From the IMG/VR virus record IMGVR_UViG_3300008952_002488, positions 107,927 to 171,926 of that record: DNA of 64,000 nt, one strand, 5' to 3'. Position 1 is the stretch's first letter, and every line of letters begins with the position of its first letter. Both the position numbers and the translations under genes were made by a program. Source of the stretch: a virus. Below the pieces are notes generated by a model. The model was not told the origin of the DNA. It searched no databases and saw nothing but the letters and a program-made list of their open reading frames with translations. Positions 10,520 to 50,222 of the stretch are shown here, in pieces.

Positions 10520-10568
10520 CTTTCTCTCTCAGCTATTTACTTTAGAAGTGTTCCTGAAAGGAAAAAAT

Positions 10569-13403: not shown

Positions 13404-14672
13404 TTGACAGAAAAAAAGAAGATAAAAGTTTTAACAATTAGTGATCACCCACTATTACCCTCGGGTGTTGGAACTCAAACAAAATATGTTATTCAAGCCC
13501 TTTTAAATACCGGAAAATTTCAGATAATATCTTTAGGTGGGGCGATAAAGCATCCTGATTATAATGTAACTAGAACAGAGGAGTGGCTCGATGATTGGCT
13601 CATTTACCCAGTCGATGGATATGGAAACCAAGAAATTGTAAGAAGCATGATAGCTCAATATAAGCCAGATATTCTTTATTTTATGACAGACCCAAGATTT
13701 TATGAATGGCTTTGGCAGTTTGAGGACGAAATAAGATTAGCAGTACCAATGGTTTATTATCATGTTTGGGATAATGGTCCAAGCCCTAGGTTTAATGCTC
13801 CATTTTATAGATCAAATGATTATATTGCAACCATTTCAAAAGTTACAAGCAACATAGTAAAAGAAGTTGCACCAGATGTTCCAGAGGAATATATCCCACA
13901 TGCTGTAAATTCAGTGGTATTTCGGAAACACACATTGCCAGAAGAAATGGCAATGTTGAGGCAAATAAGAAAAGACAATAATTTGGAAAATAAGTTTGTC
14001 TGCTTTTGGAACAACAGAAACGCTAGAAGAAAAATGAGTGGTTCTTTAGTTTGGTGGTGGAAGTCCTTCTGTGATGAGGTGGGACACGATAAAGCAACAC
14101 TGATATTACATACCGACCCAAGCGACCCACATGGACAACCTTTAGAGTTTTTAGCCCACGAACTTGGACTAATGAAAGGTCAGATACATTTCTCGAAAGA
14201 AAAAGTGCAACCTCAACAACTGGCAATTTTCTATAATCTTGTAGATTGCACGATAAATATTTCGGATGCAGAAGGTTTTGGGCTGTCCACGTTGGAATCT
14301 TTGTCTTGTGGAACCCCTGTTGTTGCGACAATGACTGGAGGACTCCAAGAGCAGGTGACCGACGGAGAGAACTTCTTTGGGGTTGGAATTGAACCTACTT
14401 CCCGAGCCGTTATTGGTTCACAGCAAGTCCCATATATCTATGAAGATAGAATAAACGAGGAAGTTTTCGTTGATGCTCTTAAAAAGATATATTATGCGAC
14501 AGAAGAAGAGAGGCAAGAGATGGGGCGAATGGGCATGGAACACGTTAAAAAGAACTATAATTTTGAGACTTTTAATAAACAGTGGATCGATTTCATGTTA
14601 AGAGTTCATGAAGAGAGCGGATCTTGGGAAACAAGAAAGAATCACGAAGCCTGGGAGTTTATTGAATTATGA
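13404..14672 (+). CDS. Glycosyltransferase, GT4 (GT-B)
   Basis: SGVG N-terminal loop; NRNARRK; EGFGLSTLESLSCGTPV (EX7E). Confidence 0.9.
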   Translation: MTEKKKIKVLTISDHPLLPSGVGTQTKYVIQALLNTGKFQIISLGGAIKHPDYNVTRTEEWLDDWLIYPVDGYGNQEIVRSMIAQYKPDILYFMTDPRFYEWLWQFEDEIRLAVPMVYYHVWDNGPSPRFNAPFYRSNDYIATISKVTSNIVKEVAPDVPEEYIPHAVNSVVFRKHTLPEEMAMLRQIRKDNNLENKFVCFWNNRNARRKMSGSLVWWWKSFCDEVGHDKATLILHTDPSDPHGQPLEFLAHELGLMKGQIHFSKEKVQPQQLAIFYNLVDCTINISDAEGFGLSTLESLSCGTPVVATMTGGLQEQVTDGENFFGVGIEPTSRAVIGSQQVPYIYEDRINEEVFVDALKKIYYATEEERQEMGRMGMEHVKKNYNFETFNKQWIDFMLRVHEESGSWETRKNHEAWEFIEL

Positions 14673-15946
14673 TAAAAGTCTTAATAAAAGGACCAATTTT
14701 TAGTAGAAGCGGTTATGGCGAGCATACAAGATATATGTTTAGGGCACTAAATAGTCGTCCGGATCTTTTTGATATTTTTGTACATCCGACTAATTGGGGG
14801 CAGTCAAGCTGGAATCTTGATTCCTCTGAGGAAACCAAAAATTTCGAAACTTGTGTAAACAAGTTGCAGCAGTTCCAAGGCAAATTTGATTTGTCGCTTC
14901 AGGTATTAATCCCAAATGAGTGGGAGAATTTAGCAGAAAAGAATATTGGAGTCACGGCTGCTATTGAAACAACTTATGCTTCGGCTCAGTGGATTCACAG
15001 CAGTAATTTCATGGATAAGATTTTTGTTACCTCTGAGCACGCCAAAAATACCTTAAAAAACCCGTCTCACACAGTTAAGACTGAAGATGGAAAAGAGCAT
15101 ATTATAAAACTTACAAAACCAGTTTCTGTGATTTCTTATCCATTTAGAGATATTAAAGCAGATAAATCCAGCCACAAGAAAATAAAGCTGGATACAAAGT
15201 TTAATTTTTTAACCTGTGCTCAGATTGGACCTCGTAAAAACCTTATGAATACTATTCGTTGGTTTGTTGAGGAATTTAAAAATGAAGAAGATGTCGGATT
15301 GGTTGTAAAAGCCCACCACATGAATAACAGCGTTTTAGACCGCAATAAAGTGAAGATGTTGCTTAGTCAAGCAGTTCACGGAGTTCCACACAGAAAATGT
15401 AGAGTTTTTCTTCTTCACGGAAATATGACTGAGGAAGAGATGAATTCTCTATATAAGCATCCAAATATTCATGCGTATGCAACAATAACCCACGGGGAAG
15501 GATTCGGTCTTCCTATTTTTGAGGCTGCTTGTAGTGGTTTGCCCGTCATAGCTCCCGCCTGGTCTGGACAAGTTGACTTCCTTTACGACAACATTAAAAA
15601 TAAAAAATCAGGTAGACTAAAAAGGACACCAATGTTTACAAAAGTAAAGTATAAATTAGATAAGGTCCCACAAGAAGCTGTCTGGGAAAATGTTGTAGAA
15701 GCAGATTCACAGTGGTGCTATTCAGATGAGGCGGCTTATAAAAAAGCCCTAAGAGGAACCATAGAAGCCTACAAGAGCAGAAAGATTGTAGCAGGAAAGC
15801 TTCAAAAATCCTTAGAGAAGAGACTTGATCAAACGAAAATGTTCGAAAAAGTTGTAGAAGAAGTATTAGATGTATACCCTGAAGATGTTGCTGAGTTAGA
15901 AGATTTTCTAGATGGTCTAGCATCTGAAATACAAGTGCATGAGTAA
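14669..15946 (+). CDS. Glycosyltransferase, GT4 (GT-B)
   Basis: SGYG; PRKN; GEGFGLPIFEAACSGLPV. Confidence 0.9.
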   Translation: MIKVLIKGPIFSRSGYGEHTRYMFRALNSRPDLFDIFVHPTNWGQSSWNLDSSEETKNFETCVNKLQQFQGKFDLSLQVLIPNEWENLAEKNIGVTAAIETTYASAQWIHSSNFMDKIFVTSEHAKNTLKNPSHTVKTEDGKEHIIKLTKPVSVISYPFRDIKADKSSHKKIKLDTKFNFLTCAQIGPRKNLMNTIRWFVEEFKNEEDVGLVVKAHHMNNSVLDRNKVKMLLSQAVHGVPHRKCRVFLLHGNMTEEEMNSLYKHPNIHAYATITHGEGFGLPIFEAACSGLPVIAPAWSGQVDFLYDNIKNKKSGRLKRTPMFTKVKYKLDKVPQEAVWENVVEADSQWCYSDEAAYKKALRGTIEAYKSRKIVAGKLQKSLEKRLDQTKMFEKVVEEVLDVYPEDVAELEDFLDGLASEIQVHE

Positions 15947-16784
15947 GATATTATTCATTGCCGATATATTTGCAGAAGAGTGGCTCGGCGGTGGAGAACT
16001 TAATAACCAAGAACTCATTGGGATATTGAGAGAAAAAGGACATGAGGTTCTGACTGTTAAAAGCGAAAATGTCAATTTAGAATTTTTACAACATTGGCAG
16101 AATGACGCAAAATTTATCGTCTCCAATTTCATAAAACTGCCGGAAGAAGTAAAGCAACACCTTCAGGAGAAGCATGATTATGTGATTTATGAACATGATC
16201 ACAAATATTTGACAACTAGAGATCCATCTGTTTTCGAAAATTATCTAGCGCCGGATGAAAATATTGTAAATCTTGATTTCTATAAAAATGCAAGAGCCGT
16301 TTTTTGTCAAAGTAGTTTACATGCTGAGGTTGTAGAAAAAAACATAAAAACAGGAAATGTACATTCGCTTGGGGGAAACCTCTGGAGCCTCGAAATTTTA
16401 GATATGTTATCATCTTTATTCCACAAGGAGAAAAAGGAAAGATATTCGATATGGGACTCGCACAATCCTATAAAAAATACTTCGCTAGCTAAAGCTTATT
16501 GTCACAGAAATAAATTAGAATATGATCTTGTTGGAGAACTACCTTATAGGGAATTTTTAAATCGATTGACAGATAATAAATACTTCATATTTTTACCTGA
16601 AACACTGGAGACCTTGTGCCGTGTCGTTGTTGAGTGCAGAATGGCCGGCATGACTGTTTTAACAAGTAAGAAGCTTGGTGCCACAAGTGAAGAGTGGTTC
16701 AAATTAAAAGGAGAAGAGCTTATAAGCTTGATGAAGCAGAAAAGAGAAACAATACCAGATTTGGTTTTGGAGAAATTATTATGA
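15939..16784 (+). CDS. Putative GT-B glycosyltransferase
   Basis: GGGE N-terminal motif; ETLCRVVVECRMAG (EX7E). Confidence 0.7.
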   Translation: MSKILFIADIFAEEWLGGGELNNQELIGILREKGHEVLTVKSENVNLEFLQHWQNDAKFIVSNFIKLPEEVKQHLQEKHDYVIYEHDHKYLTTRDPSVFENYLAPDENIVNLDFYKNARAVFCQSSLHAEVVEKNIKTGNVHSLGGNLWSLEILDMLSSLFHKEKKERYSIWDSHNPIKNTSLAKAYCHRNKLEYDLVGELPYREFLNRLTDNKYFIFLPETLETLCRVVVECRMAGMTVLTSKKLGATSEEWFKLKGEELISLMKQKRETIPDLVLEKLL

Positions 16785-17515
16785 ATCCAAAAGTTACAAT
16801 TATAATACCTTGTTATAATTCGGAAAAGTATATCGAAAAGTGTTTGAGGTCTGCCTTATCTCAAACTTATGATAATTTTGAGGTTATTTTTGTAGATAAT
16901 GACAGCGGTGATGACAGCTTGGAAATCGCCGAAAAAATACAAGAAGAGTTCCCAGAACTCCTAATTGATACTGCCCCAAATTTATACCCATTTTCCTGGG
17001 AAGAACCAGTTGAGGCAGCTTTGTCTCTGGCTACTGGTGAATATTTTACAATTCTAGGATCAGACGACTATATTTCGGAAGATTATGTATCAAATTTCAT
17101 GAAAAAGATTTTAGAATCCGAAGAAACCATTTTGGTTTTACAAAGCGGAATTAAAGGCATAGACGATAAGTCAAATTTGATCGACCAAGATGTTTCTCAC
17201 ATTTATTCAAGTATAGAGGAATTTAAAGAACTCCTGCTGCAAAGATGTCCAGTAACAACTCCGTCCGTAGTTTATAAAACAGAGCTTCACGGAAAAGGAA
17301 TTGTAAGATGGCTGGCTAGCGAATATCTTGGGGCTGCCGATTATGATCTTTATTTTAATTTGGCTGATAATGACGTTTATATCCATCCTGTCGGGGAGTG
17401 GCTTGGGTATTATTATCGCTGGCACCAAGACCAGGCAACATGGGGGATGCAAAAACAACCTCTAAATTACGACTTTATGCTCCAGAATCAATGGAGAGAA
17501 AAGTGGGGAATGTGA
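16781..17515 (+). CDS. Glycosyltransferase, GT2 (start at ATG 16781)
   Basis: VTIIIPCYN; VDNDSGD; GSDD; ADYDL. Confidence 0.9.
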   Translation: MNPKVTIIIPCYNSEKYIEKCLRSALSQTYDNFEVIFVDNDSGDDSLEIAEKIQEEFPELLIDTAPNLYPFSWEEPVEAALSLATGEYFTILGSDDYISEDYVSNFMKKILESEETILVLQSGIKGIDDKSNLIDQDVSHIYSSIEEFKELLLQRCPVTTPSVVYKTELHGKGIVRWLASEYLGAADYDLYFNLADNDVYIHPVGEWLGYYYRWHQDQATWGMQKQPLNYDFMLQNQWREKWGM

Positions 17516-19311
17516 AAGTAAGAGTTGTTGACTATATTGCTAACAAAATTGATGAACTTGGTGTAAGGGATGTTTTTACTCTTACCGGCGGCGGTGCAAT
17601 GTTCCTCAATGATTGTATTGCAAAACACCCAAATCTAAGAGCTATTTGTAATCACCACGAACAGGCTTGCGCCATGGGTGCGGTAGGCTATGGAAAATAC
17701 ACTAACAATTTTGGTGTATCAATAGTGACCACTGGTTGTGGCAGCACTAACGCTCTGACTGGATTATTGGAAGCGTGGCAAGATAATGTCAAATGCTTGT
17801 TTATATCGGGACAAGTAAATAAATCACAAACTACTCATAATATAAACGTACCACTAAGACAACTAGGTGTCCAAGAGGCTAATATCGTTGATGTAGTAAG
17901 ACCGATATGTAAATATGCAATTATGATAACAGACCCAAACAGGGTAAAGTTTGAGGTAGAAAAAGCAATTCATATCGCCAGTGAAGGACGCCCCGGACCA
18001 GTTTGGCTAGATATCCCATTGGATGTACAGGGGGCTTTTATTGACGTTGATGATTGTCTTTCTTATCCCATTAGGAGAAATAACCACATAAAGAAAAAAA
18101 TAACCCCAAGCGAGTGCGAATCCTTATCTGAGATGTTTGATAAAGCCGAACGCCCAGTGGTTTTAGTTGGGAACGGTGTTCGCCTAGCTGATGCCACGGA
18201 ACAACTCAAAACATTTGTTGAAAAATATAATATACCCACGGTAGCTACTTTTCTTGGCGTTGATCTACTAGAGAGTGATCACCCCTTGATGATCGGGAGG
18301 GTTGGAATCAAAGGGAATCGTGCAGCAAATTTCGCAATGCAAAACTCGGATCTTTTGATAACTATCGGTACTCGCTTAGGTGTTCCTGTGACTGGGTATA
18401 ATTATGAGACCTTCGCTAGAGAGGCAAAGATCGTAGTTGTAGATATTGACAGAGAAGAACACCGGAAAAACACAATCAAAATAGATAAACTGATTGGCTC
18501 CGATGCTAAGAACTTTTTAGAAATTATAAAGTTTAATAAAAAGGTTACCAAAGAATGGTCAGACACATGTTTGAGGTGGAAGAAAAACTGGAGAGTATGT
18601 AATCCGGAATGGAGCAAAGACAAAGAAGGAATAGATCTATATTATTTTATGGATCATCTCTCAAGGCAGAATAAAGATGACTCGGTTGTTGTATCTGATG
18701 CAGGATCCGCATACTATGTTCCTTCTCAATTTCTGGATATTAAAAAAGAACAAAGATATGTAACGTCTGGAGCACAAGCAGACATGGGGTTTACGATCCC
18801 CGCCGCCATTGGGGTTAGTGTTGCAAGGGGAGATAAAGAGGTTATAGGAATTACAGGCGATGGATCTTTCCAAACAAACATCCAAGAACTTCAGACAATA
18901 AAACATTATAACCTACCGATAAAACTTTTCGTGTGGAACAATCACGGATATTTGTCTATCAGAACAACACAGAGAAAGTTTTTTGATGGCAGATTTATAG
19001 GTGTTGACGGCGATTCTGGAGTGTCACTTCCAAACATAGAAAAAATTACCGACGCCTACGGGCTGAAGTATTTTAAGATTGAAACTGTTGAGGGGTTGGA
19101 AGATGGCATACAAAAGGTTCTGAATTATGATGGTCCAGTTGTGTGTGAGGTGATGTGTCAAAAATGGCAAGAAGTTGTTCCAACGCTTATATCGACAAAG
19201 ACAAAAGACGGAAGAATCGTGTCTAGACCATTCGAAGATATGTATCCGCTCTTAACTAGAGAAGAATTTTACGATAACATGATTATCGAGCCTATAAACT
19301 ATGAGGAATAA
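17512..19311 (+). CDS. ThDP-dependent acetolactate-synthase-like enzyme (YerE-like carboligase candidate)
   Basis: HHEQAC; GRPGPVWLDIP; GDGSF...NNHGY ThDP motif. GTG start overlaps the previous stop. Lies inside the sugar cluster. Confidence 0.85.
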   Translation: MKVRVVDYIANKIDELGVRDVFTLTGGGAMFLNDCIAKHPNLRAICNHHEQACAMGAVGYGKYTNNFGVSIVTTGCGSTNALTGLLEAWQDNVKCLFISGQVNKSQTTHNINVPLRQLGVQEANIVDVVRPICKYAIMITDPNRVKFEVEKAIHIASEGRPGPVWLDIPLDVQGAFIDVDDCLSYPIRRNNHIKKKITPSECESLSEMFDKAERPVVLVGNGVRLADATEQLKTFVEKYNIPTVATFLGVDLLESDHPLMIGRVGIKGNRAANFAMQNSDLLITIGTRLGVPVTGYNYETFAREAKIVVVDIDREEHRKNTIKIDKLIGSDAKNFLEIIKFNKKVTKEWSDTCLRWKKNWRVCNPEWSKDKEGIDLYYFMDHLSRQNKDDSVVVSDAGSAYYVPSQFLDIKKEQRYVTSGAQADMGFTIPAAIGVSVARGDKEVIGITGDGSFQTNIQELQTIKHYNLPIKLFVWNNHGYLSIRTTQRKFFDGRFIGVDGDSGVSLPNIEKITDAYGLKYFKIETVEGLEDGIQKVLNYDGPVVCEVMCQKWQEVVPTLISTKTKDGRIVSRPFEDMYPLLTREEFYDNMIIEPINYEE

Positions 19312-19314
19312 AAA

Positions 19315-20253
19315 ATGGCAACCGACCCAAAAAAGACAACTATTTTAACACTAAGGAGGCACAAGAGACAAGAAAAGAAATCTGTATTTGTGACCGCCTA
19401 TGATTATCCACAGGCACTACTCGCTGACAAGGCGGGAGTTGATGGGATACTTGTTGGCGATTCTTTAGGGATGACCACCTTGGGTCATAAAACAACTATA
19501 CCAGTTACAATGGACGCTATGATTCTGCACGCCGAAGCAGTTGCCCGTGGAGCCAAGAGTGCTTTTCTGGTGGGAGACATGCCTTACATGTCTTATCAAG
19601 CTTCAAACAGCGAAGCAGTACATAATGCTGGTCGGTTTATTCGGGCTGGCATGGATTCTGTCAAAGTCGAGGGAGCGATGGTGGATCGTATCAAAGCAAT
19701 TGCTGATGCCGGAATTCTCGTTCAGAGTCACTTAGGTCTCACCCCTCACACAAGAGCAAAGTTAGGTGGCTATAGAGTTCAGGGAAAAACTGCGGAGAGC
19801 ACAGAAATTATTCTTAATCAAGCACTCGAACTACAAGAGGCCGGATGTGCCTTCCTTCTGTTAGAGGCGATGCCAAGAGAATCAGCACAAGCAGTAGCGA
19901 AAGAGTTGAGCATCCCGGTGTATGGTATTGGCGCTGGGGATTTGGTGGATGGTCAGCTTGTTATTATGCACGACTTGGTTGGGTTATTTTGGGAGTTTAA
20001 GTCCAAGTTTGTTAAGAGATACTGCGAGGCTGGAGCCATTATTCAAACGGCTTTGGAACAATATGCCGAAGAAGTTCGCAATGGAGTGTTTCCCTCAGAA
20101 GAAAACTTCTATGAAATTAAAGATGAGGAGCTTGAGAAACTTCTTTCTAATGCAAAATGGAAGTATGAAACCGATCAAGGATTTCCAACTAACCATAGTC
20201 CAACTCCAAACACAGTAACCCCTAAAGAAGATATTTTCAATAATAAAAAATGA
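19315..20253 (+). CDS. panB: 3-methyl-2-oxobutanoate hydroxymethyltransferase family
   Basis: TAYDY, LVGDSLGM, GDMPYMSY, VKVEG, HLGLTP, GIGAG, DGQ. Confidence 0.92.
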   Translation: MATDPKKTTILTLRRHKRQEKKSVFVTAYDYPQALLADKAGVDGILVGDSLGMTTLGHKTTIPVTMDAMILHAEAVARGAKSAFLVGDMPYMSYQASNSEAVHNAGRFIRAGMDSVKVEGAMVDRIKAIADAGILVQSHLGLTPHTRAKLGGYRVQGKTAESTEIILNQALELQEAGCAFLLLEAMPRESAQAVAKELSIPVYGIGAGDLVDGQLVIMHDLVGLFWEFKSKFVKRYCEAGAIIQTALEQYAEEVRNGVFPSEENFYEIKDEELEKLLSNAKWKYETDQGFPTNHSPTPNTVTPKEDIFNNKK

Positions 20254-21080
20254 AGGTCCTAATAACTGGGCGAAACGGTTTTTTAGCAAAAGAGTTATAC
20301 GAGAAATTTGACGATCTTGATATAACTTGTGCCGGAAGAAAAGAAGTAAACTTAACGGACAGTCAGTCTGTAAGAATATTCTTGCAACAAAACAGGTTTG
20401 ATGCCGTCGTACACACTGCCATAATCGGAGGCAGAAGAAACGAAACAGATACTCTCCAAACCTTTGTTGACAACATTTCGATGTTTAATAATTTGGTAGC
20501 AAACAGGCATTCTTTTGGAAAACTAATCAACTTCTGTTCTGGGGCAGCTTTCGGAAAAAATGCTGATATATACAAATACCAAGAAAACAGAATTTACTCA
20601 TTTACACCCTCTGATTATTATGGGATGTCGAAAAACATAATCGCCCGTGAGTGCGATAAATTGTTTGATGTTTATAATCTTAGGTTGTTCGGGTGCTTTG
20701 GGTTTCATGAAGCAAAAACTAGGTTTATAAAATCTTCCATTTTAAGGGCTTTAAAAGGAGAGCCAATATTAATTCATAAAAATAAGATGATGGATTTTGT
20801 TTCATCAGATGACGTGGCAACTGTTGTTCGTCACTATTTGGAAAATGATCCAGGGAAAGATTATGAAAATATCAACATATGCTACAAAGAAAAACATACA
20901 TTAAGGAATATAGCAGCAGAGATTGTAACTTTAACAAATTCTAGTTCTGATATAATATTAGAAGAAGATGGGTTTGCAAACACCTATACTGGGTGTAGTG
21001 ATAAATTGGAAACTCTTGGTCTTGACCTACAGGGTCTTGTTGTAGGGTTGAGAAATTTGACGGAAAGATTAAGTGAATAA
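20250..21080 (+). CDS. NAD-dependent epimerase/dehydratase/reductase (extended SDR)
   Basis: ITGRNGFLA; YGMSK (YxxxK). Confidence 0.85.
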   Translation: MKVLITGRNGFLAKELYEKFDDLDITCAGRKEVNLTDSQSVRIFLQQNRFDAVVHTAIIGGRRNETDTLQTFVDNISMFNNLVANRHSFGKLINFCSGAAFGKNADIYKYQENRIYSFTPSDYYGMSKNIIARECDKLFDVYNLRLFGCFGFHEAKTRFIKSSILRALKGEPILIHKNKMMDFVSSDDVATVVRHYLENDPGKDYENINICYKEKHTLRNIAAEIVTLTNSSSDIILEEDGFANTYTGCSDKLETLGLDLQGLVVGLRNLTERLSE

Positions 21081-22416: not shown

Positions 22417-22417
22417 T

Positions 22418-23368: not shown

Positions 23369-23372
23369 GAAA

Positions 23373-29076: not shown

Positions 29077-29077
29077 A

Positions 29078-30738: not shown

Positions 30739-31223
30739 ACAACACATTCCCAGAAGTTGGAGTTTTTGATTCTGACATGTTCCGAGACTATCGGGGCGAT
30801 ATTTGGACAACTTATAAAAAGAAAACATCCGCAATAAAACTAGATTTTATTCATGATAAATTTTCATCTTCTAGGAAGAGTGTGATTCGTGGAATCCACG
30901 GAGATTATAAAACTTGGAAGATGGTTAGTTGTATACACGGAGAGATTTATTTTGTTGTGGTTGATAACCGCCCCGACTCAGAAACATACCTCCAGTGGGA
31001 TTGGATGATACTTGACGACAAAGAAAGAAAACAAGTTTTACTTCCGCCCGGCTTCGGAAATGGGTTTTGTGTGATGAGCGATACAGCCGTTTTCAGTTAT
31101 AAGCTCGCATACGATGGAGAGTATTCTGACGTTGATCAACAATTTACCTTAAAATGGAACGATCCTCGTGTTAACATAGACTGGCCAACCAGTAATCCAA
31201 TATTACAAGCGAGAGACAAATGA
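30720..31223 (+). CDS. rfbC: dTDP-4-dehydrorhamnose 3,5-epimerase (RmlC) family
   Basis: DYRG; VIRGIH; VVDNR..S.TY; PPGFGNGF; WNDP..IDWP. Exact start uncertain. Confidence 0.85.
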   Translation: MGHQLVNNTFPEVGVFDSDMFRDYRGDIWTTYKKKTSAIKLDFIHDKFSSSRKSVIRGIHGDYKTWKMVSCIHGEIYFVVVDNRPDSETYLQWDWMILDDKERKQVLLPPGFGNGFCVMSDTAVFSYKLAYDGEYSDVDQQFTLKWNDPRVNIDWPTSNPILQARDK

Positions 31224-31846
31224 ACATTCCAAATCATCTTAAAAAAGTTAGAAAGGTTTCTTTGAGTCCTCAAGAACTTATTGATTTTGAGTCTAAAGTT
31301 AGAGATACTTATGAGGCGGGAAAAGTCAAGGGACCAATCCACCTCGCCAAGAATAACGAAGAACAACTGATAGAAATATTTCAGTACATAAGTCCAGATG
31401 ATTGGGTTTTTGTCCCCTGGAGAAATCACTACCACGCTCTTTTACATGGAGTTGATCCAGAAAAGCTGTTTAATTCTATTGTAGAAGGTAGAAGCATGGG
31501 GACAAACAACATAAAGCCAAACTTTTATGCCTCTTCTATTGTGGGTGGCATTATACCTCTAGCTTTAGGTACCGCTCTTGCGCTAAAAACAAAGGGGTCC
31601 AATAAAAGGGTTTGGTGTTTTGTAGGCGATATGACGATGGAAACTGGTGTGTTTCACGAGGCATACAAGTACGCAAAAAATTTCAATCTCCCCCTTCAGT
31701 GGGTGGTCGAAGATAACAATATGAGTGTTCATACACCAACCGAGATGGCATGGGGCAAAAAACAAGAAGCACCTGATGGTGTCATTTATTACAAGTATGA
31801 AATGGAGTACCCCCATCACGGGACAGGAAAGTGGGTCAATTTTTAA
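31220..31846 (+). CDS. Short ThDP-dependent E1-alpha-like subunit
   Basis: GPIHL; WRNHYH; SIVGG; GDMTMETG...EDNN. Only 208 aa. Confidence 0.85.
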   Translation: MNIPNHLKKVRKVSLSPQELIDFESKVRDTYEAGKVKGPIHLAKNNEEQLIEIFQYISPDDWVFVPWRNHYHALLHGVDPEKLFNSIVEGRSMGTNNIKPNFYASSIVGGIIPLALGTALALKTKGSNKRVWCFVGDMTMETGVFHEAYKYAKNFNLPLQWVVEDNNMSVHTPTEMAWGKKQEAPDGVIYYKYEMEYPHHGTGKWVNF

Positions 31847-32383
31847 ATGAGTTATAAGAGTGAACTTATTAGGTCGATGGAGTGGTTATCTCGGAAAGAA
31901 GATACAATCTTTTTAGGACAAGCCTGCAAGGTTAGCGGACACGCAATCTCCAGCACTTTAGAAAAAGTCCCAGACGAAAAAAGAATTGAATTACCAGTTT
32001 TTGAAGAAACACAGATGGGTATTTCAACCGGAATGGCCCTGGAGGGTTATGTACCCATAACAATGTATCCTCGCTTCGATTTCTTTATTCTTGCCTGTAA
32101 TCAATTGGTTAACCATTTAGATAAAATGAGGGACATGTCAAAGGGTGATATGACACCTCGTGTTATTATTCGGGTTGCTATAGGGTCAAAGAATCCAATT
32201 GATGCAGGTCCACAGCACACCCAGAACCACACTGAAGCCCTTCGTAAAATGTTAACAGAGGTAGAGGTCGTAGAACTTTATGAGGCAGAGGATATATTCG
32301 CAGAATTTAAGAACGCTTACGAGCGATTAGATTCAAAATCAACACTTCTTGTAGAATATGGAGAATTCTATGGGACAAAGTAA
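31847..32383 (+). CDS. Short E1-beta/transketolase pyrimidine-binding subunit
   Basis: ELPVFEETQMG; NQLVN; GPQHTQ. No C-terminal domain. Confidence 0.85.
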   Translation: MSYKSELIRSMEWLSRKEDTIFLGQACKVSGHAISSTLEKVPDEKRIELPVFEETQMGISTGMALEGYVPITMYPRFDFFILACNQLVNHLDKMRDMSKGDMTPRVIIRVAIGSKNPIDAGPQHTQNHTEALRKMLTEVEVVELYEAEDIFAEFKNAYERLDSKSTLLVEYGEFYGTK

Positions 32384-33545
32384 ATTCACATGGCCTCTAA
32401 TAAACGACAATATTACAGAATCAGATAAATACGCACTTATTGACTGGTTAAAAGAACCAAACGTTCGCTTCACTCAGTCAAAATATGTGCGAAAGTTTGA
32501 GGAAGAGTGGTCAAAATGGCTTGGCGTAAAATATACTGTATTTGTCAACTCCGGAGCGTCCGCCAATTATATTATGGCATCTATCCTCAAAGAAATGAAA
32601 GGTAGAGGGGAAGTTATTGTTCCGCCCATAGGTTGGGTGTCTGATATTGCCCCTATTGTAAATCTTGGCATGACGCCAGTCTTTGTTGATGTTGACATGA
32701 GCAGTATGGCTATTACTGCTGAGAATATTAAAAATGCTATAACCGACAGGACGATTGGCATTACTTTGGTTCACGCTCTGGGGTTTGATGGACTTACAGA
32801 TGAGCTTGTAAAAATAGCAAAAGAACACGATTTAATTCTTATTGAGGATTGTTGTGAGTCACATGGCGCAACCCATAATGGAAGACTTGTTGGTTCTCAT
32901 GGGTTGATGTCAAACTTTTCATTTTATTTTGGGCACCACATCACTACCGTAGAGGGAGGAGTTGTTTGCACTAACGATGAGAAAGTTTATGAGCTTGCAA
33001 AAATGTTTAGATCTCATGGTATGATTAGAGAAGCTGACACTAAATTACAAGAATATTATGAAAAAAAGTATCCCGATTTAAATCCGCTGTTTACATTTGC
33101 TGTCCCTGGTTATAATTTAAGAAATACTGAGTTTAATGCTGTATTGGGGTTGCAACAAATAAAGCGTTTAGATCAGGCGTGTAAAATAAGGTCTTTCAAT
33201 CTTGGTATATGGTTGGAGTTTTTGGATAGTAAAAAGTATTATACCGATTTCAAGTTTGATGGAAACAGTAATTTCGCACTACCGCTCATCTTGTTAGACA
33301 AGGACAAAAATAGAATGAAAAATGTGGAAAAAACCCTTCGCACTATGGGTGTCGAATATAGGATAGGAACAGCAGGCGGGGGAAACCAAGCCCGTCAACC
33401 ATATCTGGAGGGATATAGACATAGAGTTGTTGGCGACCTTAAAAATGCAGATCATATTCATGATTTCGGTCTTTATGTGGGTAACCATACAGATCTAACG
33501 GAAACACAAATTAGAGAACTATGTGAGGCTTTGAATGTTTGTTGA
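32370..33545 (+). CDS. DegT/DnrJ-fold NDP-4-keto-6-deoxyhexose 3-dehydratase (ColD-like)
   Basis: VNSGASAN; EDCCESHGA; FSFYFGHHITTVEGG with His in place of Lys; no Fe-S insert. Confidence 0.8.
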   Translation: MGQSKFTWPLINDNITESDKYALIDWLKEPNVRFTQSKYVRKFEEEWSKWLGVKYTVFVNSGASANYIMASILKEMKGRGEVIVPPIGWVSDIAPIVNLGMTPVFVDVDMSSMAITAENIKNAITDRTIGITLVHALGFDGLTDELVKIAKEHDLILIEDCCESHGATHNGRLVGSHGLMSNFSFYFGHHITTVEGGVVCTNDEKVYELAKMFRSHGMIREADTKLQEYYEKKYPDLNPLFTFAVPGYNLRNTEFNAVLGLQQIKRLDQACKIRSFNLGIWLEFLDSKKYYTDFKFDGNSNFALPLILLDKDKNRMKNVEKTLRTMGVEYRIGTAGGGNQARQPYLEGYRHRVVGDLKNADHIHDFGLYVGNHTDLTETQIRELCEALNVC

Positions 33546-34512
33546 TTATAGAGATAAAAAAGTTTTAGTTACCGGCGGCACAGGTATGATTGGTCGCCAA
33601 CTCGTGGATCTTTTAGTTGAGCGTGGTGCAGAAGTATCAGTGGTATCCTTGGACCCTCCAGCAGGACTGCCTCAGTCAGTAAAATTTGTCCACGGCAATC
33701 TTACAGAGTTTGCTGTGTGTAAGAGTTTATGTGAGGGTATGGATTACGTTTTCAATCTAGTTGGCGTAAAGGGGTCCCCAAAGATGTGCAAGGAGCAGCC
33801 AGCCGATTTTATGGTTCCAATGTTACAATTCAATACCAATATGATGGAAGCTGCAAGGTTGGCAGGTGTTGACTGGTATCTTTATACAAGTAGTGTGGGA
33901 GTTTATCACCCAGCAGAAGTTTTTAAAGAAGACGATGTTTGGTCCACTTTCCCGTCTGAGAATGACAGATTTGCAGGATGGGCAAAAAGGATAGGAGAGC
34001 TTCAGGCTGAAGCTTATAAAATTCAATATGGTTGGGACCGTGTTTCCATCGTGCGCCCAGCAAACGTATACGGACCATATGACAATTTCGACCCAGAAAA
34101 CGCCATGGTTATCCCATCTCTAATCAGGAAAGCATATGAAAACGATAAGCTGGAAGTTTGGGGTGACGGGTCCCCGATAAGGGATTTTATTCACTCCAGA
34201 GATGTAGCACTTGGGATGTTGCACATGGTAGAAAATGAGGTAAACGTCCCAGTCAATCTTGGCTCTGGAGAAGGGGTAACCATTAAAGAAATTGTTGATA
34301 TCGTGGTAGAGAAATGTCCGAAGGATATTGAAGTTGTTTGGGACACCACGAAACCGACGGGGGACAAGAGAAGGATTCTTGATTCCACTCGTGCGAAAGA
34401 GGTCGGATTCGAGACAACCATTAGCCTGTCTGACGGAATTGAAGAAACTATTGAATGGTTTGAGAAAAATAGGAGTGTAATCGATGACAGACACAACGCT
34501 TTCAGGAAGTAG
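33535..34512 (+). CDS. Extended SDR epimerase/reductase, catalytic Tyr absent
   Basis: TGGTGMIG; SSVGVY; AGWAK in place of YxxxK; RPANVYGP. Confidence 0.85.
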   Translation: MFVDYRDKKVLVTGGTGMIGRQLVDLLVERGAEVSVVSLDPPAGLPQSVKFVHGNLTEFAVCKSLCEGMDYVFNLVGVKGSPKMCKEQPADFMVPMLQFNTNMMEAARLAGVDWYLYTSSVGVYHPAEVFKEDDVWSTFPSENDRFAGWAKRIGELQAEAYKIQYGWDRVSIVRPANVYGPYDNFDPENAMVIPSLIRKAYENDKLEVWGDGSPIRDFIHSRDVALGMLHMVENEVNVPVNLGSGEGVTIKEIVDIVVEKCPKDIEVVWDTTKPTGDKRRILDSTRAKEVGFETTISLSDGIEETIEWFEKNRSVIDDRHNAFRK

Positions 34513-35224
34513 AGTTTTAGTAACGGGAGCAGGAAGCGGACTTGGTAAATATATTGCATCACAGATAGAATGTGTGGCAATGACACGAGAAAACTGCCAA
34601 GAGATTTTATCCAAGTACAAAACAAAGCCGTTCGATCTCATTATTCATTGTGCCTTTAATTCGACCAAAGATACGAATGATTATTATGGATTGCTTGAGG
34701 ATAATGTTTTTCTAACGAGAAGTGTATCATTGTTACCTCATCATAAATTTGTATTTTTATCCTCTATTGATGTATATCGTGATGAAAGCAGCTTATATAA
34801 AACAACAAAATTAATGGCAGAGTCTATTGTTAAAAGGTTAACAACTAGAACTCTTATCCTTCGTTGCGGAGCTATTCTTGGAGAAACGATGAGAAAAAAC
34901 AATTTTCGAAAGATCATCGAGGACGAAAACCCAGAAGTCTCTTTATCAGGAAAATCCACTTTCAATTATATTCTACAAGAAGATATTCTCAGTTTTATAA
35001 AGATGTCCTATATGAGCAAATATAATGGAATTGTTGACTTTGTGTCGTCGGGAAATGTTGATTTTAAGCAGGTAGCTGATCTTTTAAAGAAAGAGGTCAA
35101 GTTTGGAAAATACACCTACAAAACACCAAACCTACCTAACCAAGAGTTGGTAGAGGTTTTTCCAACGGCTGCCTTGTCGTCAGAAGATAATATTCGAAGA
35201 TATTTGAGGAATAGAAATGAGTAA
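34484..35224 (+). CDS. Short NAD-dependent epimerase/reductase
   Basis: TGAGSGLG; SSIDVY; YKTTK. Confidence 0.8.
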   Translation: MTDTTLSGSRVLVTGAGSGLGKYIASQIECVAMTRENCQEILSKYKTKPFDLIIHCAFNSTKDTNDYYGLLEDNVFLTRSVSLLPHHKFVFLSSIDVYRDESSLYKTTKLMAESIVKRLTTRTLILRCGAILGETMRKNNFRKIIEDENPEVSLSGKSTFNYILQEDILSFIKMSYMSKYNGIVDFVSSGNVDFKQVADLLKKEVKFGKYTYKTPNLPNQELVEVFPTAALSSEDNIRRYLRNRNE

Positions 35225-36164
35225 GAAAATACTTTTGTGCGGAGCCACTGGATTTATTGGCAGGAATCTCTTGGAACACTTTTATGGCAATCCCTTTTAC
35301 AGTATTCGTGCAATTTACCACAAGAAGGAAGCACTTACTGAATATGATGTAGAGTGGTGCTATGCTGACTTGAATAATCCACATGATGTAGAGAGGGTAA
35401 TGCAAGATGTCGATATTATCCTTCAGTTTGCTGCAACCACCTCCGGAGCCAAAGATATTACAACCAAGCCCTATATTCATGTGACAGATAATGCTGTTAT
35501 GAACTCGTTGCTGTTAAGATCTGCATACGAAAATGGAGTAGAACATTTTGTTTTCCCAAGTTGTACAGTAATGTACCAACCAAGTGATATAGCTTTAACT
35601 GAAGAGGACTTTGATGGCAGCGATGAGATTCACTCAAAATATTTTGGCGTGGGAAACACCAAGGTTTATATCGAAAAAATGTGTGAATTTTATTCACGAC
35701 TTGGAAGAACTAAGCATACGGTTTTAAGGCACTCAAATATTTATGGACCCTATGATAAATATGATTTAGAGAGAAGCCATGTCTTTGGTGCTACAGTTAC
35801 AAAAGTTATGACAGCAGAAAATAAAGTGGTAATGTGGGGAACAGGAGAAGAGAAGAGAGATCTTCTTCATGTTGAGGATTTATGTAAATTCGTAGAGGCT
35901 GCCACACAAAAACAAAAAACAAGTTATGAGCTATACAACGTTGGGTTAGGGGAGGCTGTCGCCGTCCGTGATCTTGTTCAGAAAATTATTGATGCCTCTG
36001 GAAAAGATTTGGTAATTGAAAATGACTTATCTAAACCAACTATCAAAACAAGCTTGTTTTTAAACTGGAGTAAAGCGGTGCGAGAACTGGGGTGGAAACC
36101 AGAAATAAGCTTAGAAGAGGGAATTGAAAAAACTCTGAACTGGTATAAGGAAAATATAAAATGA
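35217..36164 (+). CDS. GDP-fucose-synthase-like extended SDR, catalytic Tyr absent
   Basis: GATGFIG; PSCTVMY; VGNTK in place of YxxxK; NIYGP.D; SHV; WGTG. Confidence 0.8.
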   Translation: MSKKILLCGATGFIGRNLLEHFYGNPFYSIRAIYHKKEALTEYDVEWCYADLNNPHDVERVMQDVDIILQFAATTSGAKDITTKPYIHVTDNAVMNSLLLRSAYENGVEHFVFPSCTVMYQPSDIALTEEDFDGSDEIHSKYFGVGNTKVYIEKMCEFYSRLGRTKHTVLRHSNIYGPYDKYDLERSHVFGATVTKVMTAENKVVMWGTGEEKRDLLHVEDLCKFVEAATQKQKTSYELYNVGLGEAVAVRDLVQKIIDASGKDLVIENDLSKPTIKTSLFLNWSKAVRELGWKPEISLEEGIEKTLNWYKENIK

Positions 36165-37171
36165 CCAAACGTGCCCTGGTAACTGGTATAACAGGAATGG
36201 TTGGCTCGCATTTGGCGGACTTTCTTTTAGAAAATACAGACTGGGACATTTATGGCTTTTGCCGCTGGAACGACAACTTTGAGAATTTAGAACATCTATT
36301 TGGGAGAATAAATTCCAAAGATAGGGTCCAACTTATATACGGCGACCTTAACGATCTTCCCTCTTTGTTGACGACTGTCGAAAACAGTGACCCGGATTAT
36401 GTTTTTCATCTTGCGGCACAAAGCTATCCGAGGACAAGTTTCGACGCCCCTCTTGAAACATTTGAGACAAACATTCTTGGAACTGCAAAACTTTTGGAAG
36501 CCATAAGGGTTCTGAAGAAAAAACCAGTTATCCATGTTTGTGCTTCGTCGGAAGTTTTTGGGAGAGTACCAAAAGAATTTTTACCAATACACGAAGAAGT
36601 CAAATTTCACCCAGCGTCCCCGTATGCTATTTCCAAGGTTGGTACAGATCTTGTTGGTAGATTCTATGCGGAGGCTTACGGATTAACTGTTATGACAACT
36701 AGAATGTTTACTCACACAGGACCACGCCGTGGAGATGTTTTCGCAGAGTCAACCTTTGCTAAACAGATTGCGATGATTGAAGCAGGAATGTTGCCACCTG
36801 TTCTAAAAGTAGGAAACCTTGATTCTCTAAGAACTTGGTCTGATGTTAGAGATGCAGTAAGGGCTTACTATATGCTTGTTACAAAAAATCCAATAGCGGG
36901 GGAATATTACAACATTGGAGGGACTTTTAGCTGCACCGTAAAGGAGATGCTTGATTACCTCTTATCTCAGTCAACAGTGAAAAATATTAAGGTTGAGGTT
37001 GACCCTGATAGATTGAGACCAATCGACGCAGACCTACAGGTTCCCGATGCAACCAAATTTAAATCCCACACAGGCTGGTGCCCTGAAATCTCATTTGAAA
37101 AAACTATGAATGATTTGCTTAATTATTGGCGAGAAAGAGTGCAAAATGGTAGGGAGTTTTTGGCGAGGTAA
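36161..37171 (+). CDS. gmd: GDP-mannose 4,6-dehydratase-like
   Basis: TGITGMVG; HLAAQS; SSEVFG; PASPYAISK; GNLDS.R. Confidence 0.8.
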   Translation: MTKRALVTGITGMVGSHLADFLLENTDWDIYGFCRWNDNFENLEHLFGRINSKDRVQLIYGDLNDLPSLLTTVENSDPDYVFHLAAQSYPRTSFDAPLETFETNILGTAKLLEAIRVLKKKPVIHVCASSEVFGRVPKEFLPIHEEVKFHPASPYAISKVGTDLVGRFYAEAYGLTVMTTRMFTHTGPRRGDVFAESTFAKQIAMIEAGMLPPVLKVGNLDSLRTWSDVRDAVRAYYMLVTKNPIAGEYYNIGGTFSCTVKEMLDYLLSQSTVKNIKVEVDPDRLRPIDADLQVPDATKFKSHTGWCPEISFEKTMNDLLNYWRERVQNGREFLAR

Positions 37172-37917
37172 TGTCTAAGAAGGTTTTGATAATAGGCGAA
37201 AGCTGCAAAGATATATTTAACTATGGTAACTGCGACAGGTTATGCCCCGACGCACCTGTTCCTGTTTTCAACGGAATCAACACAGTAGAGACTAACGGTA
37301 TGGCGATGAATGTTGCTCAAAATATCACATCTCTAGGGGTAGCGGTTGATATTCTCACGAACGATGGTTGGGAAAAATCTAAAAAAAGTCGTTATATTGA
37401 TGACAAAACCAACCAAATGCTCCTCCGCATAGATGAAAATGACGAAGTTTCCCAACCTTTTGACGCATTTTTGCTAAAAGAAGAGGCGATAAGAGAATAT
37501 GACGCAGTAATCATATCTGACTACTGTAAGGGGTTTTTGACGGAAAAATCAATGAAACAAATATCTCTTCTCAACCAGAATGTGTTTCTGGATACTAAGA
37601 GATTGTTGGGACCCTGGTGTGATAATATAGAATTTATAAAGATAAACTACTATGAGCATAATCGGACAAAACACTTACTTAACCAAAACATATATGACAA
37701 GTTGATTATTACGCTCGGCTCTGAAGGATGTAAATATCGTGACGAAGTATTTCCTGTTCCAAAGGTGGAAATCAAAGACTCTTCAGGTGGTGGTGATACA
37801 TTTATAGCAGGACTTGTGGCAAAATATTTGGAAACAAACGATATTAAGGAAGCTATCAAGTTCGCCAATGAGTGTGCTACAAAAGTTGTCCAAAAGAGGG
37901 GTGTAAGTATCGTATGA
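37171..37917 (+). CDS. Heptose-7-phosphate kinase-like (HldA / RfaE domain I, PfkB family)
   Basis: RLCPDAPVPV; NVA.N; LLRID; ISDYCKG; DSSGGGDTF. Confidence 0.85.
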   Translation: MSKKVLIIGESCKDIFNYGNCDRLCPDAPVPVFNGINTVETNGMAMNVAQNITSLGVAVDILTNDGWEKSKKSRYIDDKTNQMLLRIDENDEVSQPFDAFLLKEEAIREYDAVIISDYCKGFLTEKSMKQISLLNQNVFLDTKRLLGPWCDNIEFIKINYYEHNRTKHLLNQNIYDKLIITLGSEGCKYRDEVFPVPKVEIKDSSGGGDTFIAGLVAKYLETNDIKEAIKFANECATKVVQKRGVSIV

Positions 37918-38309
37918 CTACAGTTTGGACAAATGGGTGCTTTGATGTTTTACATAGAGGGCACATTGAGATGTTTAAATATGCAAAATCTCTTGGAGAT
38001 ACGCTGATTGTTGGAATTGATACTGATGAAAAAGTCAAAGCTGTAAAGGGTAATGACCGACCTTTTAACAGCTTGGGGGATAGAATGTTTTTAGTATCTT
38101 CCATAAGGTATGTTGACGAAGTATATGATTTTGGGTCTAGAAAAGAATTAGAGAACTTAATAAAATTAACAAAACCTGATATTCTAGTTGTAGGATCTGA
38201 CTGGAGAGGCAAAGAGGTTGTCGGCAGTCAGTATGCAGGCAGGGTTGATTTCTTTGACAGGATCGGCAATTATTCTACCACAAAAATACTGGAGAAACAG
38301 AAATTTTAG
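37914..38309 (+). CDS. Heptose-1-phosphate nucleotidyltransferase-like (HldC / RfaE domain II)
   Basis: TNGCFDVLHRGH; KG..RP; PDILVVGSDW; YSTT. Confidence 0.88.
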   Translation: MTTVWTNGCFDVLHRGHIEMFKYAKSLGDTLIVGIDTDEKVKAVKGNDRPFNSLGDRMFLVSSIRYVDEVYDFGSRKELENLIKLTKPDILVVGSDWRGKEVVGSQYAGRVDFFDRIGNYSTTKILEKQKF

Positions 38310-38608
38310 TTTACGTTGACATAGATGATACAATATGTACTTATGAGGGGGAAAGACATTATCCCTCTGCGATACCGATCATGAAGAACATCGAAAAGAT
38401 AAACCAAATGTACGATAGTGGTGATACTATTGTGTACTGGACGGCTCGTGGCGGGACAACGGGAATAGATTGGACAGCCCTCACGCACGAGCAACTTAAT
38501 GTGTGGGGAGCCAAATACCACGAAATAAAAATGTGGAAGCCTCCCTATGATATTTTTATATGTGACAAGGCTGTAAATACAGCAGATTTCTTTAAAGAAG
38601 GAGAATAA
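38303..38608 (+). CDS. Small HAD-superfamily phosphatase, probable ATT start
   Basis: Reading in-frame upstream of the track's ATG (38381) gives (M)LVYVDIDDTIC (DxDxT). Also WTARG, KP and ICDK. GGAG lies 8 nt before the ATT at 38303. Confidence 0.75.
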   Translation: MLVYVDIDDTICTYEGERHYPSAIPIMKNIEKINQMYDSGDTIVYWTARGGTTGIDWTALTHEQLNVWGAKYHEIKMWKPPYDIFICDKAVNTADFFKEGE

Positions 38609-38609
38609 A

Positions 38610-40048: not shown

Positions 40049-40082
40049 GAACCTATTTATTTATACTTAACGAGGACAAAGT

Positions 40083-40379: not shown

Positions 40380-40389
40380 GGCATACAAA

Positions 40390-50196: not shown

Positions 50197-50222
50197 TTAT
50201 TGAAGCAATCTGAGGAATAAAA

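Follow-up and report, generated by a model that had tools for sequence, protein, structure and literature searches.

A fixed glycosyltransferase core with exchangeable sugar cassettes in a clade of marine and freshwater myoviruses: a candidate pathway for virion glycosylation

Why should a phage devote some 25 kb of its genome to making a complex glycan while carrying no genes to export or polymerize it, and on what acceptor would such a glycan be built? The question is raised by a gene island at positions 13404-38608 of the DNA analysed here, the terminal 64 kb ("the window") of the 171,926-bp IMG/VR virus record IMGVR_UViG_3300008952_002488 ("the contig", or G000). An earlier reading, made from the sequence without database searches, had described a nearly gap-free run of about 28 genes and proposed that it decorates phage proteins or, less likely, DNA or the host surface. 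We find that the locus combines a deeply conserved core of glycosyltransferases with an island of hypervariable cargo behind it; this pairing of conserved anchor and hypervariable cargo is the main structural point, and the earlier reading had missed it. As to the acceptor, the evidence is indirect and points most strongly to proteins of the virion, a proposal to which we give about an even chance.

Annotation relied on Pfam, NCBIfam and PHROG profiles, on Foldseek searches of the PDB with AF2 models, and on a scan for hydrophobic 19-mers. The reported run of ~25 kb was borne out: the island comprises 30 open reading frames (ORFs), every one on the + strand, and its 29 junctions consist of 26 overlaps, one abutment and two gaps (3 and 4 nt). 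The earlier count of five to six glycosyltransferases (GTs) settles at six (two GT4, one compact GT-B, one GT2, one Maf-like and one GT10 enzyme) by Pfam and NCBIfam together with predicted structure, because ORF 15939, which matches no Pfam, NCBIfam or PHROG family, folds as a compact GT-B enzyme. Alongside are about 24 sugar-pathway enzymes, of which PanB and RfbH alone score above the NCBIfam equivalog cut-offs; the others are clear members of their families, with a specificity that the scores do not set. No enrichment of T4 late, sigma-70 or Bacteroidota promoter motifs was seen in intergenic DNA.

Gene content of this kind resembles that of bacterial O-antigen and capsule loci, and the contig is a metagenome assembly to which CheckV assigns a completeness of only 60%; both facts could speak for an assembly chimera, or for a captured bacterial O-antigen locus foreign to the phage. 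A chimeric join, recognized from the start as a danger to the whole proposal, was sought and not found. The island lies on a single strand with phage genes on both sides, and its G+C content is level (0.36-0.42), the same as in the flanks. Three Tara Oceans contigs from different samples (L110, L111 and L112) show the same gene order within the same phage flanks: nuclease, GT4, GT4, a 281-aa protein, GT2, a thiamine diphosphate (ThDP) enzyme module, a short-chain dehydrogenase/reductase (SDR), RfbH, dehydratase, one or two Maf-like genes, NeuB, CMP-transferase, tailoring genes, GT10, RmlC-like, E1 alpha/beta and DegT. Other IMG/VR contigs share these junctions, a relative with terminal repeats has a 21-kb island at the same locus, and the synteny recurs in three cultured phages. 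Because independent Tara and IMG/VR assemblies recover the same order between the same flanks, the island is not an assembly chimera; that explanation is already refuted, and the weight we leave it is negligible.

The source is a genuine myovirus genome of ~190 kb, hence not the "huge" phage of the earlier label. Besides the island, the contig encodes terminase, portal, major head protein, UvsX, DnaB and SbcCD, and it is collinear, gene by gene, with the relative G002 (190,528 bp, with a 1.6-kb direct terminal repeat). Given this collinearity, it lacks only the stretch matching ~155-186 kb of G002 (~20-30 kb), the CheckV figure notwithstanding. No match to the island was obtained by megablast among 50,697 phage records, and relatives are detectable at the protein level only; the lineage includes Flavobacterium phage immuto, Microcystis phage Mel-JY01 and Rhodothermus phage RM378, with tblastn values for the gp6-like baseplate protein of 34.5% (Mel-JY01) and 31.7% (immuto). 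For the comparisons that follow, we fetched 80 related loci from IMG/VR, whose islands total ~626 kb and 629 ORFs, and used five related genomes (G001-G005), three of them rated 98-100% complete (G002 and G003 at 100%) and one with terminal repeats.

Across these loci the left end of the island is fixed and the remainder is not. A nuclease followed by the first GT4 gene was found in 78 of the 80 loci, the second GT4 gene comes next in 72, the compact GT-B enzyme is present in 41, and the rest is variable. The right-border genes (homologues of 38577-41968) return 4.0-8.7 kb past the nuclease in 11 loci, compared with 26 kb here, so that island length ranges from 4.0 to 26 kb, with modules swapped at a fixed locus; the short islands hold further transferases and a methyltransferase only. 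The nuclease-GT-GT order is common to the three cultured relatives, being followed by a sugar cassette in immuto, by a smaller group of additional transferases plus a methyltransferase in Mel-JY01, and by no cassette in RM378. Lineage-specific variation of cluster content is a trait of virus-autonomous virion glycosylation. The nuclease itself (12552), a PD-(D/E)XK exonuclease, has 549 relatives in IMG/VR, and its Tara homologues match PF12705.

The best-conserved gene of the island encodes GT4 no. 1 (53-77% identity among loci). In an alignment of 67 sequences, conservation reaches at least 95% at 114 positions, among them E290-x7-E298 and the phosphate binders R205/K210; many of these positions lie in the N (acceptor) domain, and many of the invariant residues are acidic. 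Two N-domain motifs, KPD..FTDPRFW.WL and YYHVWDN.P.P..N, together with GS..PYI.DDR in the C-terminal half, are kept in the homologues from immuto, Mel-JY01 and RM378, the hosts of which belong to three phyla (Bacteroidota, Cyanobacteriota and Rhodothermota, respectively). The AF2 model (mean predicted local distance difference test, pLDDT, 92) has the chlorovirus protein B736L (3oy2) as its top PDB match, followed by MshA, SPS and BshA. The protein is acidic (isoelectric point, pI, ~5.3-5.5; net charge ~-15). We consider it the likely priming transferase of the pathway.

GT4-like no. 2 is more variable (32-66% identity), although H275-G-E277-G and R189-K190 are conserved; its variability may reflect a match to the second sugar. 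For the compact GT-B enzyme, Foldseek returned BshA, SenB, Gtf3/GtfC and T4 AGT (E 5e-9 to 1e-6). In some relatives, GT4 no. 2 and the compact GT-B enzyme form one protein of ~700 aa (L046:7838-9943, L048:12015-14171 and L065:12055-14127), and in others the compact GT-B enzyme and a GT2 domain form one of ~540 aa (for example L001:5498-7126); such fusions tie the core transferases together functionally. The GT2 enzyme at 16694 has no hydrophobic segment in the hydrophobicity scan, and is thus devoid of C-terminal membrane helices.

The same solubility extends to the locus as a whole. None of the 30 ORFs of the cluster contains more than one hydrophobic 19-mer, hydropathy analysis of the 629 island ORFs disclosed no credible multi-pass protein, and no protein with at least four hydrophobic segments is encoded by G002 or G003. 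The family of initiating transferases PF02397 (Bac_transf) was not found in the contig and its five relatives, nor was PF01943 (Wzx, Polysacc_synt) in the contig and four relatives (G000-G004). No membrane ORF of the WecA type emerged from the island scan; PF00953 was not searched separately, but its members are multi-pass and would have been evident from their hydrophobicity. The only hydrophobic candidates on the contig are an M50 protease and a 1010-aa protein of the structural module without a Pfam match. The former is a Peptidase_M50 (site-2 protease family) membrane protein at L104:308-1111 (genome 308-1111; E 2.9e-57), 85% identical in G002. The absence of exporter, polymerase and initiating transferase, first noticed in the window, therefore holds for the 172-kb contig, five related genomes and ~626 kb of islands, and export genes elsewhere in the genome, which would have told against the proposal, did not turn up in the contig or its relatives. 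Compared with a Wzx/Wzy/ABC locus, the island has the clustered sugar enzymes and glycosyltransferases and has neither an initiating transferase nor a flippase, polymerase or permease. Soluble transferases without lipid-carrier or export genes are what is expected of virus-autonomous virion glycosylation.

Missing phage exporters are also compatible with the use of those of the host. Soluble phage enzymes could feed the undecaprenyl-linked O-antigen, capsule or general O-glycosylation pathway of the cell, with the host giving the priming transferase, flippase and polymerase; the altered surface might, for example, block superinfection or keep progeny from binding to debris. Hypervariable regions rich in glycosyltransferases are, in marine myophages, commonly interpreted as tools for such remodelling of the host envelope (PMC7029224, PMC12801897). 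The idea is in keeping with the closest characterized relatives of the GT4, GT2 and GT10 enzymes and of the sugar modules, which belong to lipopolysaccharide (LPS) and capsule pathways, and hypervariability near fibre genes fits an arms race linked to receptors. However, the acceptor-side motifs of GT4 no. 1 stay constant across three host phyla with differing surface glycans, and because they do, an acceptor that is phage-supplied or universal fits better than a host-specific glycan. The strong acidity of GT4 no. 1 also argues against remodelling, being atypical of membrane-associated GT-B enzymes. Captured bacterial loci normally bring some membrane proteins along, whereas ~626 kb of islands contain none, and the Wzx and Wzy proteins of a host tend to be selective for the repeat unit of their own pathway. 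Taken together, these points make modification of the host envelope unlikely, in our judgement.

A second alternative is hypermodification of DNA, in which the transferases would glycosylate phage bases as a protection against restriction or CRISPR. Adjacent GT4-type enzymes, an HAD (haloacid dehalogenase) phosphatase, a kinase and a nucleotidyltransferase recall the RB69/DLP3 arabinosylation cluster, whose transferases have the same PDB matches (PMC13326640), and mono- to trisaccharides, including heptose, are known on phage DNA (bioRxiv 10.1101/2023.12.21.572611). In RM378 and Mel-JY01 the core sits beside a nuclease, among replication genes, and the fold matches of the compact GT-B enzyme include T4 AGT. 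Fold similarity cannot decide the matter, since proven DNA arabinosyltransferases share the best PDB matches of GT4 no. 1 (PMC13326640). Fold searches were accordingly set aside as an acceptor test: they confirm GT-B, but they do not separate protein, DNA, lipid and small-molecule acceptors.

What bears more directly on DNA is the chemistry of the base. Established DNA-glycosylation routes require a hydroxylated base. No homologue of thymidylate synthase (PF00303), of Tet/JBP dioxygenases (PF12851, in a search without positive control) or of C5-methyltransferases (PF00145) was found in the contig and G001-G005, nor ThyX (PF02511) in the contig, and hence no established route to such a base is apparent. 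TGT/DpdA likewise had no match in G000-G004, unlike the distant relative immuto, which has formyl-preQ1 in place of dG. The nucleosides of immuto DNA, as determined by liquid chromatography with ultraviolet and mass-spectrometric detection, are dA, dC, dT and formyl-preQ1 for dG, and no glyco-nucleoside is reported (bioRxiv 10.1101/2023.04.13.536721). The net charge of GT4 no. 1 and its many invariant acidic residues speak against DNA as acceptor as well. Furthermore, the island holds five or more sugar pathways, more than any DNA glycan known to us. A GT-B enzyme beside sugar-activation genes, as seen in DNA-glycosylation clusters, is present here but does not discriminate. The low rank originally given to DNA is supported by these results, and we hold this acceptor to be very improbable.

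The glycan might instead be built on some other cytoplasmic acceptor: a host protein (takeover effector), a non-structural protein of the phage, or else a lipid or small molecule without a dedicated export system. The closest characterized GT4 relatives, namely MshA, BshA and the sucrose-phosphate and trehalose synthases, act on small molecules. Nevertheless, six transferases producing a heteroglycan with rare caps, and hypervariability between strains, would be hard to explain for a purely intracellular target, and we regard such acceptors as decidedly unlikely.

Glycosylation of virion proteins is favoured, indirectly, by two further observations, namely the chlorovirus enzyme as top PDB match of GT4 no. 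1 and the affiliation of the Maf-like transferase. The latter protein has 312 aa, about half the length of bacterial Mafs; the longest contig is shorter than 200 kb for every one listed of its 174 homologues, and its nearest Atlas clusters are 90-100% viral. Judging by these phage-sized or virus-labelled sequences, in which alone it has been seen, the lineage looks restricted to viruses. It has no match in the PDB or in cultured-phage records. A pattern search for it in IMG/VR also returned none, which reflects a limit of the method, as tblastn on the fetched loci and a large protein search both succeeded. The enzyme is presumed to be a CMP-ulosonic-acid transferase.

If virion proteins are indeed the acceptors, the pathway could be pictured as follows. 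A conserved soluble core, consisting of GT4 no. 1, GT4-like no. 2 and usually the compact GT-B enzyme and/or GT2, would assemble the glycan stepwise in the cytoplasm and would use neither an undecaprenyl carrier nor a flippase or polymerase; the host would supply the primary nucleoside diphosphate (NDP)-hexoses. GT4 no. 1 would prime a shared cytoplasmic acceptor with a common host nucleotide sugar, and GT4 no. 2, the compact GT-B enzyme and GT2 would extend the chain. The cargo would then provide lineage-specific outer sugars, an acidic ulosonic acid being the likely cap. In the present phage, these could be a C-branched 3,6-dideoxyhexose, a second deoxy/branched sugar of the GDP type, a residue of the fucose type transferred by GT10 and a modified ulosonic acid that the Maf-like enzyme would attach. 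Candidate acceptors are the giant fibre proteins and, in the major head protein, an inserted domain that is hypervariable, and the outcome would be a sugar coat peculiar to each phage lineage, as in chloroviruses, mimiviruses and some mycobacteriophages.

The head protein (591 aa; L105:1713-3488, genome 21713-23488, outside the window) contains an insertion of ~230 aa rich in Gly, Ser, Thr and Asn. Between G000 and G002 this insertion is 23-60% identical, as against 63-100% for most of the remainder. It is probably surface-exposed and represents a second hypervariable locus and a candidate glycan acceptor.

Several points weigh against virion proteins as acceptors. The six proteins encoded downstream of the island (40390-63999) show no Ser/Thr-rich repeat tracts; the giant ones contain 12-17% Ser+Thr, compared with 12% in the proteome, and the top 60-aa window among the six reaches 30%. 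The island is not consistently close to structural genes, given that in immuto it lies apart from the baseplate module. Maf/DUF115 proteins are not limited to direct protein glycosylation, and a Tannerella ulosonic-acid transferase uses a lipid-linked glycan. The pelagimyophage and cyanomyophage literature assumes modification of the host O-chain (PMC7029224, PMC12801897), and the GT-B fold matches are non-discriminating, as MshA, SPS and BshA are also the top matches of DNA arabinosyltransferases (PMC13326640).

With these reservations, we tentatively propose that the myoviruses of a widespread clade, marine and freshwater, bear on their virions a lineage-specific, O-antigen-like heteroglycan containing C-branched deoxysugars along with ulosonic acids, the assembly of which would take place in the cytoplasm, directly on proteins of the capsid or fibres. 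Such a coat could represent carrier-lipid-free protein glycosylation by a conserved core of three to four transferases with swappable cassettes, and hence a phage counterpart of giant-virus glycosylation; this we advance with comparable caution, at somewhat less than an even chance.

The sugar-pathway genes are listed in Table 1 together with the core and the flanks. In the branched-sugar module, the stretch encoding the acetohydroxyacid synthase (AHAS)-like ThDP enzyme and PanB (17398-20253) is replaced, in L110:5810-6911 and L111:5760-6858, by a split transketolase-like pair in otherwise syntenic surroundings. The NeuB-family synthase is short, with 278 aa (276-299 aa in relatives), and no SAF-domain match was reported in the Pfam scan. 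Family scans of the cluster detected no NeuC, PseB/C/H/G, LegB/C/H/G, acetyltransferase or 2-epimerase, the PseB/LegB models scoring far below cut-off. The tailoring block combines a class-III aminotransferase (PF00202, E 7e-71), an S-adenosylmethionine (SAM)-dependent methyltransferase (PF13847), a vicinal oxygen chelate (VOC)/glyoxalase protein (PF00903, E 1.4e-21), a FabG/KduD-like SDR (PF13561, E 1e-57) and a cupin (PF07883), and follows NeuB and the CMP-transferase in the Tara contigs as well. The 132-aa ORF after GT10 is 83-86% identical in five loci, with sub-threshold matches only to domains of unknown function (DUFs).

Toward the end of the island, the HldA-like kinase (37171; TIGR02198, 115 bits) and the HldC-like transferase (37872; TIGR02199, 122 bits) both score below cut-off, and no GmhA-type isomerase was among the family matches of the cluster. 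No RmlA/ManC-type nucleotidyltransferase occurs on the contig (PF00483 absent), implying that host-made primary NDP-hexoses are tailored, with the CMP-ulosonic-acid and HldE-like branches as exceptions. In the last gene, the HAD phosphatase, the frame is open from 38258 and offers no ATG, GTG or TTG ahead of the DxDxT motif. An ATT at 38303, preceded by GGAG 8 nt upstream and overlapping the upstream TAG stop, is probably the start, to judge from this context. Homologues have an ATG one to two codons ahead of the motif in five of the six loci carrying one; as the window has ATT there, the gene either uses a rare ATT start or is a weakened gene.

Table 1. Genes and modules of the island and its flanks, with positions in the window and supporting matches
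Feature	Position	Strand	Evidence
PhoH-like ATPase, conserved left flank	10437..11876	+	phrog_2765, E 3.8e-108
PD-(D/E)XK (Cas4/RecB-like) exonuclease, left anchor	12552..13391	+	phrog_69, E 6.5e-20
Core GT4 no. 1	13404..14672	+	PF00534, E 3e-13
Core GT4-like no. 2	14669..15946	+	PF00534, 26.2 bits, slightly below cut-off
Compact GT-B glycosyltransferase (predicted)	15939..16784	+	AF2 pLDDT 96.5
GT2 glycosyltransferase, soluble	16694..17515	+	PF00535, E 1.6e-24
Branched 3,6-dideoxyhexose module, five genes	17398..23368	+	NCBIfam/Pfam
AHAS/YerE-like ThDP enzyme	17398	+	TIGR00118, 375 bits, below cut-off
PanB	19315	+	NF001452, 319 bits (cut-off 272)
Short SDR reductase	20250	+	
RfbH 3-dehydrase	21073	+	NF011936, 458 bits (cut-off 423)
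NDP-hexose 4,6-dehydratase	22379	+	TIGR01181, 301 bits, below cut-off
Maf-like (MptE/DUF115) transferase	23373..24311	+	PF01973, 48.8 bits (cut-off 34.6)
NeuB-family ulosonic-acid synthase	24308-25144	+	PF03102, E 6.6e-75; TIGR03569, 267 bits, below cut-off
CMP-sugar synthetase (PseF/NeuA-like)	25141-25866	+	PF02348, E 9e-22; TIGR03584, 119 bits, below cut-off
Tailoring block, five enzymes	25856..29431	+	Pfam
GT10-like (fucosyltransferase-type) transferase and 132-aa ORF	29424..30738	+	PF00852, E 1.1e-10
Second deoxy/branched-sugar module	30720..37171	+	all NCBIfam scores below equivalog cut-offs
RmlC-like epimerase	30720	+	PF00908, E 3.8e-40
Miniature split E1 alpha/beta ThDP pair	31220, 31847	+	PF00676, PF02779
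DegT (ColD/RfbH/PseC-like)	32358	+	PF01041, E 3.6e-69
Two Fcl-like SDRs, one weak SDR, Gmd-like 4,6-dehydratase	33535-37171	+	PF01370, PF16363, E 3.4e-77
HldE-like pair, split: PfkB sugar kinase and cytidylyl/adenylyl-transferase-like protein	37171..38309	+	TIGR02198, TIGR02199
HAD-type phosphatase (DxDxT), last island gene	38303..38608	+	motif
Conserved right border, five ORFs	38577..40379	+	reappear in 11 relatives
gp25-like and gp6-like baseplate wedge proteins	49792..52016	+	phrog_261, E 4.9e-18; phrog_219, E 1.8e-20

That the island lies among phage genes, as originally stated, is confirmed by PHROG matches for PhoH (10437), the PD-(D/E)XK nuclease (12552) and the gp25-like (49792) and gp6-like (50223) baseplate proteins. 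The PhoH-like gene occurs in 76 of the 80 related loci, and the sole sizeable upstream gap (10042-10436) directly precedes it. The right border comprises a 79-aa ORF, a zinc-ribbon ORF (Zn_ribbon_8), a 105-aa ORF with an N-terminal hydrophobic segment, a 235-aa ORF and a 98-aa ORF. The 235-aa ORF (39341-40048) had been called a gp55-like sigma factor, an assignment for which we obtained no support from Pfam, PHROG or the PDB, its homologues being annotated "hypothetical". The case is weaker than had been stated, in that the lead comes from a language model alone (Atlas score 0.97, against a viral cluster with Sigma70_r2 in 21% of its members).

Directly ahead of the baseplate module, a 521-aa protein (40390-41955) has a C-terminal M15/VanY-type peptidase domain, by virtue of which it may be a virion-associated cell-wall hydrolase. 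A giant ORF of 2275 aa (42963-49790), only 22% identical to its G002 counterpart, contains a LysM domain and gives weak PHROG matches to endolysin and tape-measure proteins; another, of more than 3498 aa (53506-63999), runs off the contig and has no family match.

How does this locus relate to known systems? Clade-specific glycan clusters with proven virion glycans are found in giant viruses (PMC10117803, PMC9614988). Like those responsible for the Megavirinae fibril (PMC10117803) and the chlorovirus capsid (PMC9614988), the island combines virus-encoded rare sugars of bacterial type with soluble transferases, differs in content among related lineages and lacks lipid-carrier and export genes of the host type; the resemblance to chloroviruses includes the top PDB match of the core GT4. 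Giant viruses, however, have eukaryotic hosts, and chemical evidence exists for the glycans of their virions, whereas here the host is bacterial and a glycan on the virion is predicted; moreover, the transferase core of the island is conserved and its locus is fixed. Another parallel is offered by the mycobacteriophages Che8, Corndog and Myrna, which, according to Freeman et al. 2023 as summarized in PMC12619734, use soluble transferases to glycosylate capsid and tail-tube subunits in the cytoplasm. They differ in having few transferases, no sugar-biosynthesis cassettes and hosts among the Actinobacteria. "Moraphages" carry four core transferase groups, the function of which is unresolved (PMC12619734).

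The pelagimyophages, with their "host recognition cluster" (PMC7029224), and the cyanomyovirus S-SCSM2R, with 13 transferases (PMC12801897), are likewise large marine myoviruses; they too have numerous transferases and enzymes of NDP-sugar metabolism, of predicted function, in non-syntenic regions close to tail or fibre genes. They belong to a different lineage, and the present island is one contiguous, operon-like block behind a conserved nuclease-GT4-GT4 anchor and includes ulosonic-acid and ThDP branched-sugar modules. The papers on those phages assume the host O-chain as target, and the acceptor-conservation argument made above points away from it.

DNA-glycosylation clusters (T4 AGT/BGT; RB69/DLP3 with arabinosyl-5hoC, PMC13326640; and the MT/5mYOX/GT clusters of phage genomes, bioRxiv 10.1101/2023.12.21.572611) share adjacent GT-B/GT4 enzymes with kinase, nucleotidyltransferase and HAD phosphatase. 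The island differs in that no base-hydroxylating enzyme of known kind was found, and in that no glyco-nucleoside is reported in the DNA of a cultured relative.

Among bacterial systems, the flagellin-type Maf loci of Campylobacter, Helicobacter and Aeromonas also have a NeuB-family synthase, a CMP-synthetase and an adjoining PF01973 transferase. Unlike them, the island has no Pse/Leg B/C/H/G set, its Maf-like protein is of about half length and of a virus-restricted lineage, and no flagellin was seen, though flagellin was not searched by family. Yersiniose clusters (YerE/YerF) resemble the branched-sugar module in having an AHAS-like ThDP enzyme beside RfbH and a 4,6-dehydratase, but PanB is not part of yersiniose synthesis. 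As regards GtfA/GtfB-type systems, which O-glycosylate serine-rich repeat proteins in the cytoplasm, the island has an adjacent GT4 pair, and the compact GT-B enzyme matches Gtf3/GtfC among others; no specific GtfA/GtfB match was obtained, and none of the six downstream proteins is a serine-rich repeat acceptor.

Transferase-rich hypervariable islands in marine myophages are thus already known (PMC7029224, PMC12801897). New are the fixed locus with its deeply conserved transferase core, the clade-wide lack of membrane components, the pair of ThDP modules together with the one for an ulosonic acid, and evidence that speaks against DNA, and likewise against a glycan specific to the host, as the acceptor.

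The core is common to three cultured relatives, which makes the proposal directly testable at the bench. The island is also a compact natural library of soluble rare-sugar enzymes, whose transferases may work without lipid carriers and could be of use in glyco-engineering. If abundant ocean phages do bear strain-specific coats, then our views of how they adsorb, which hosts they infect, how they stick to particles and mucus, how they are lost to grazing and how defence systems recognize them would have to change, and many "LPS" and "pantothenate" auxiliary genes in marine viromes would be reassigned to the biology of the virion.

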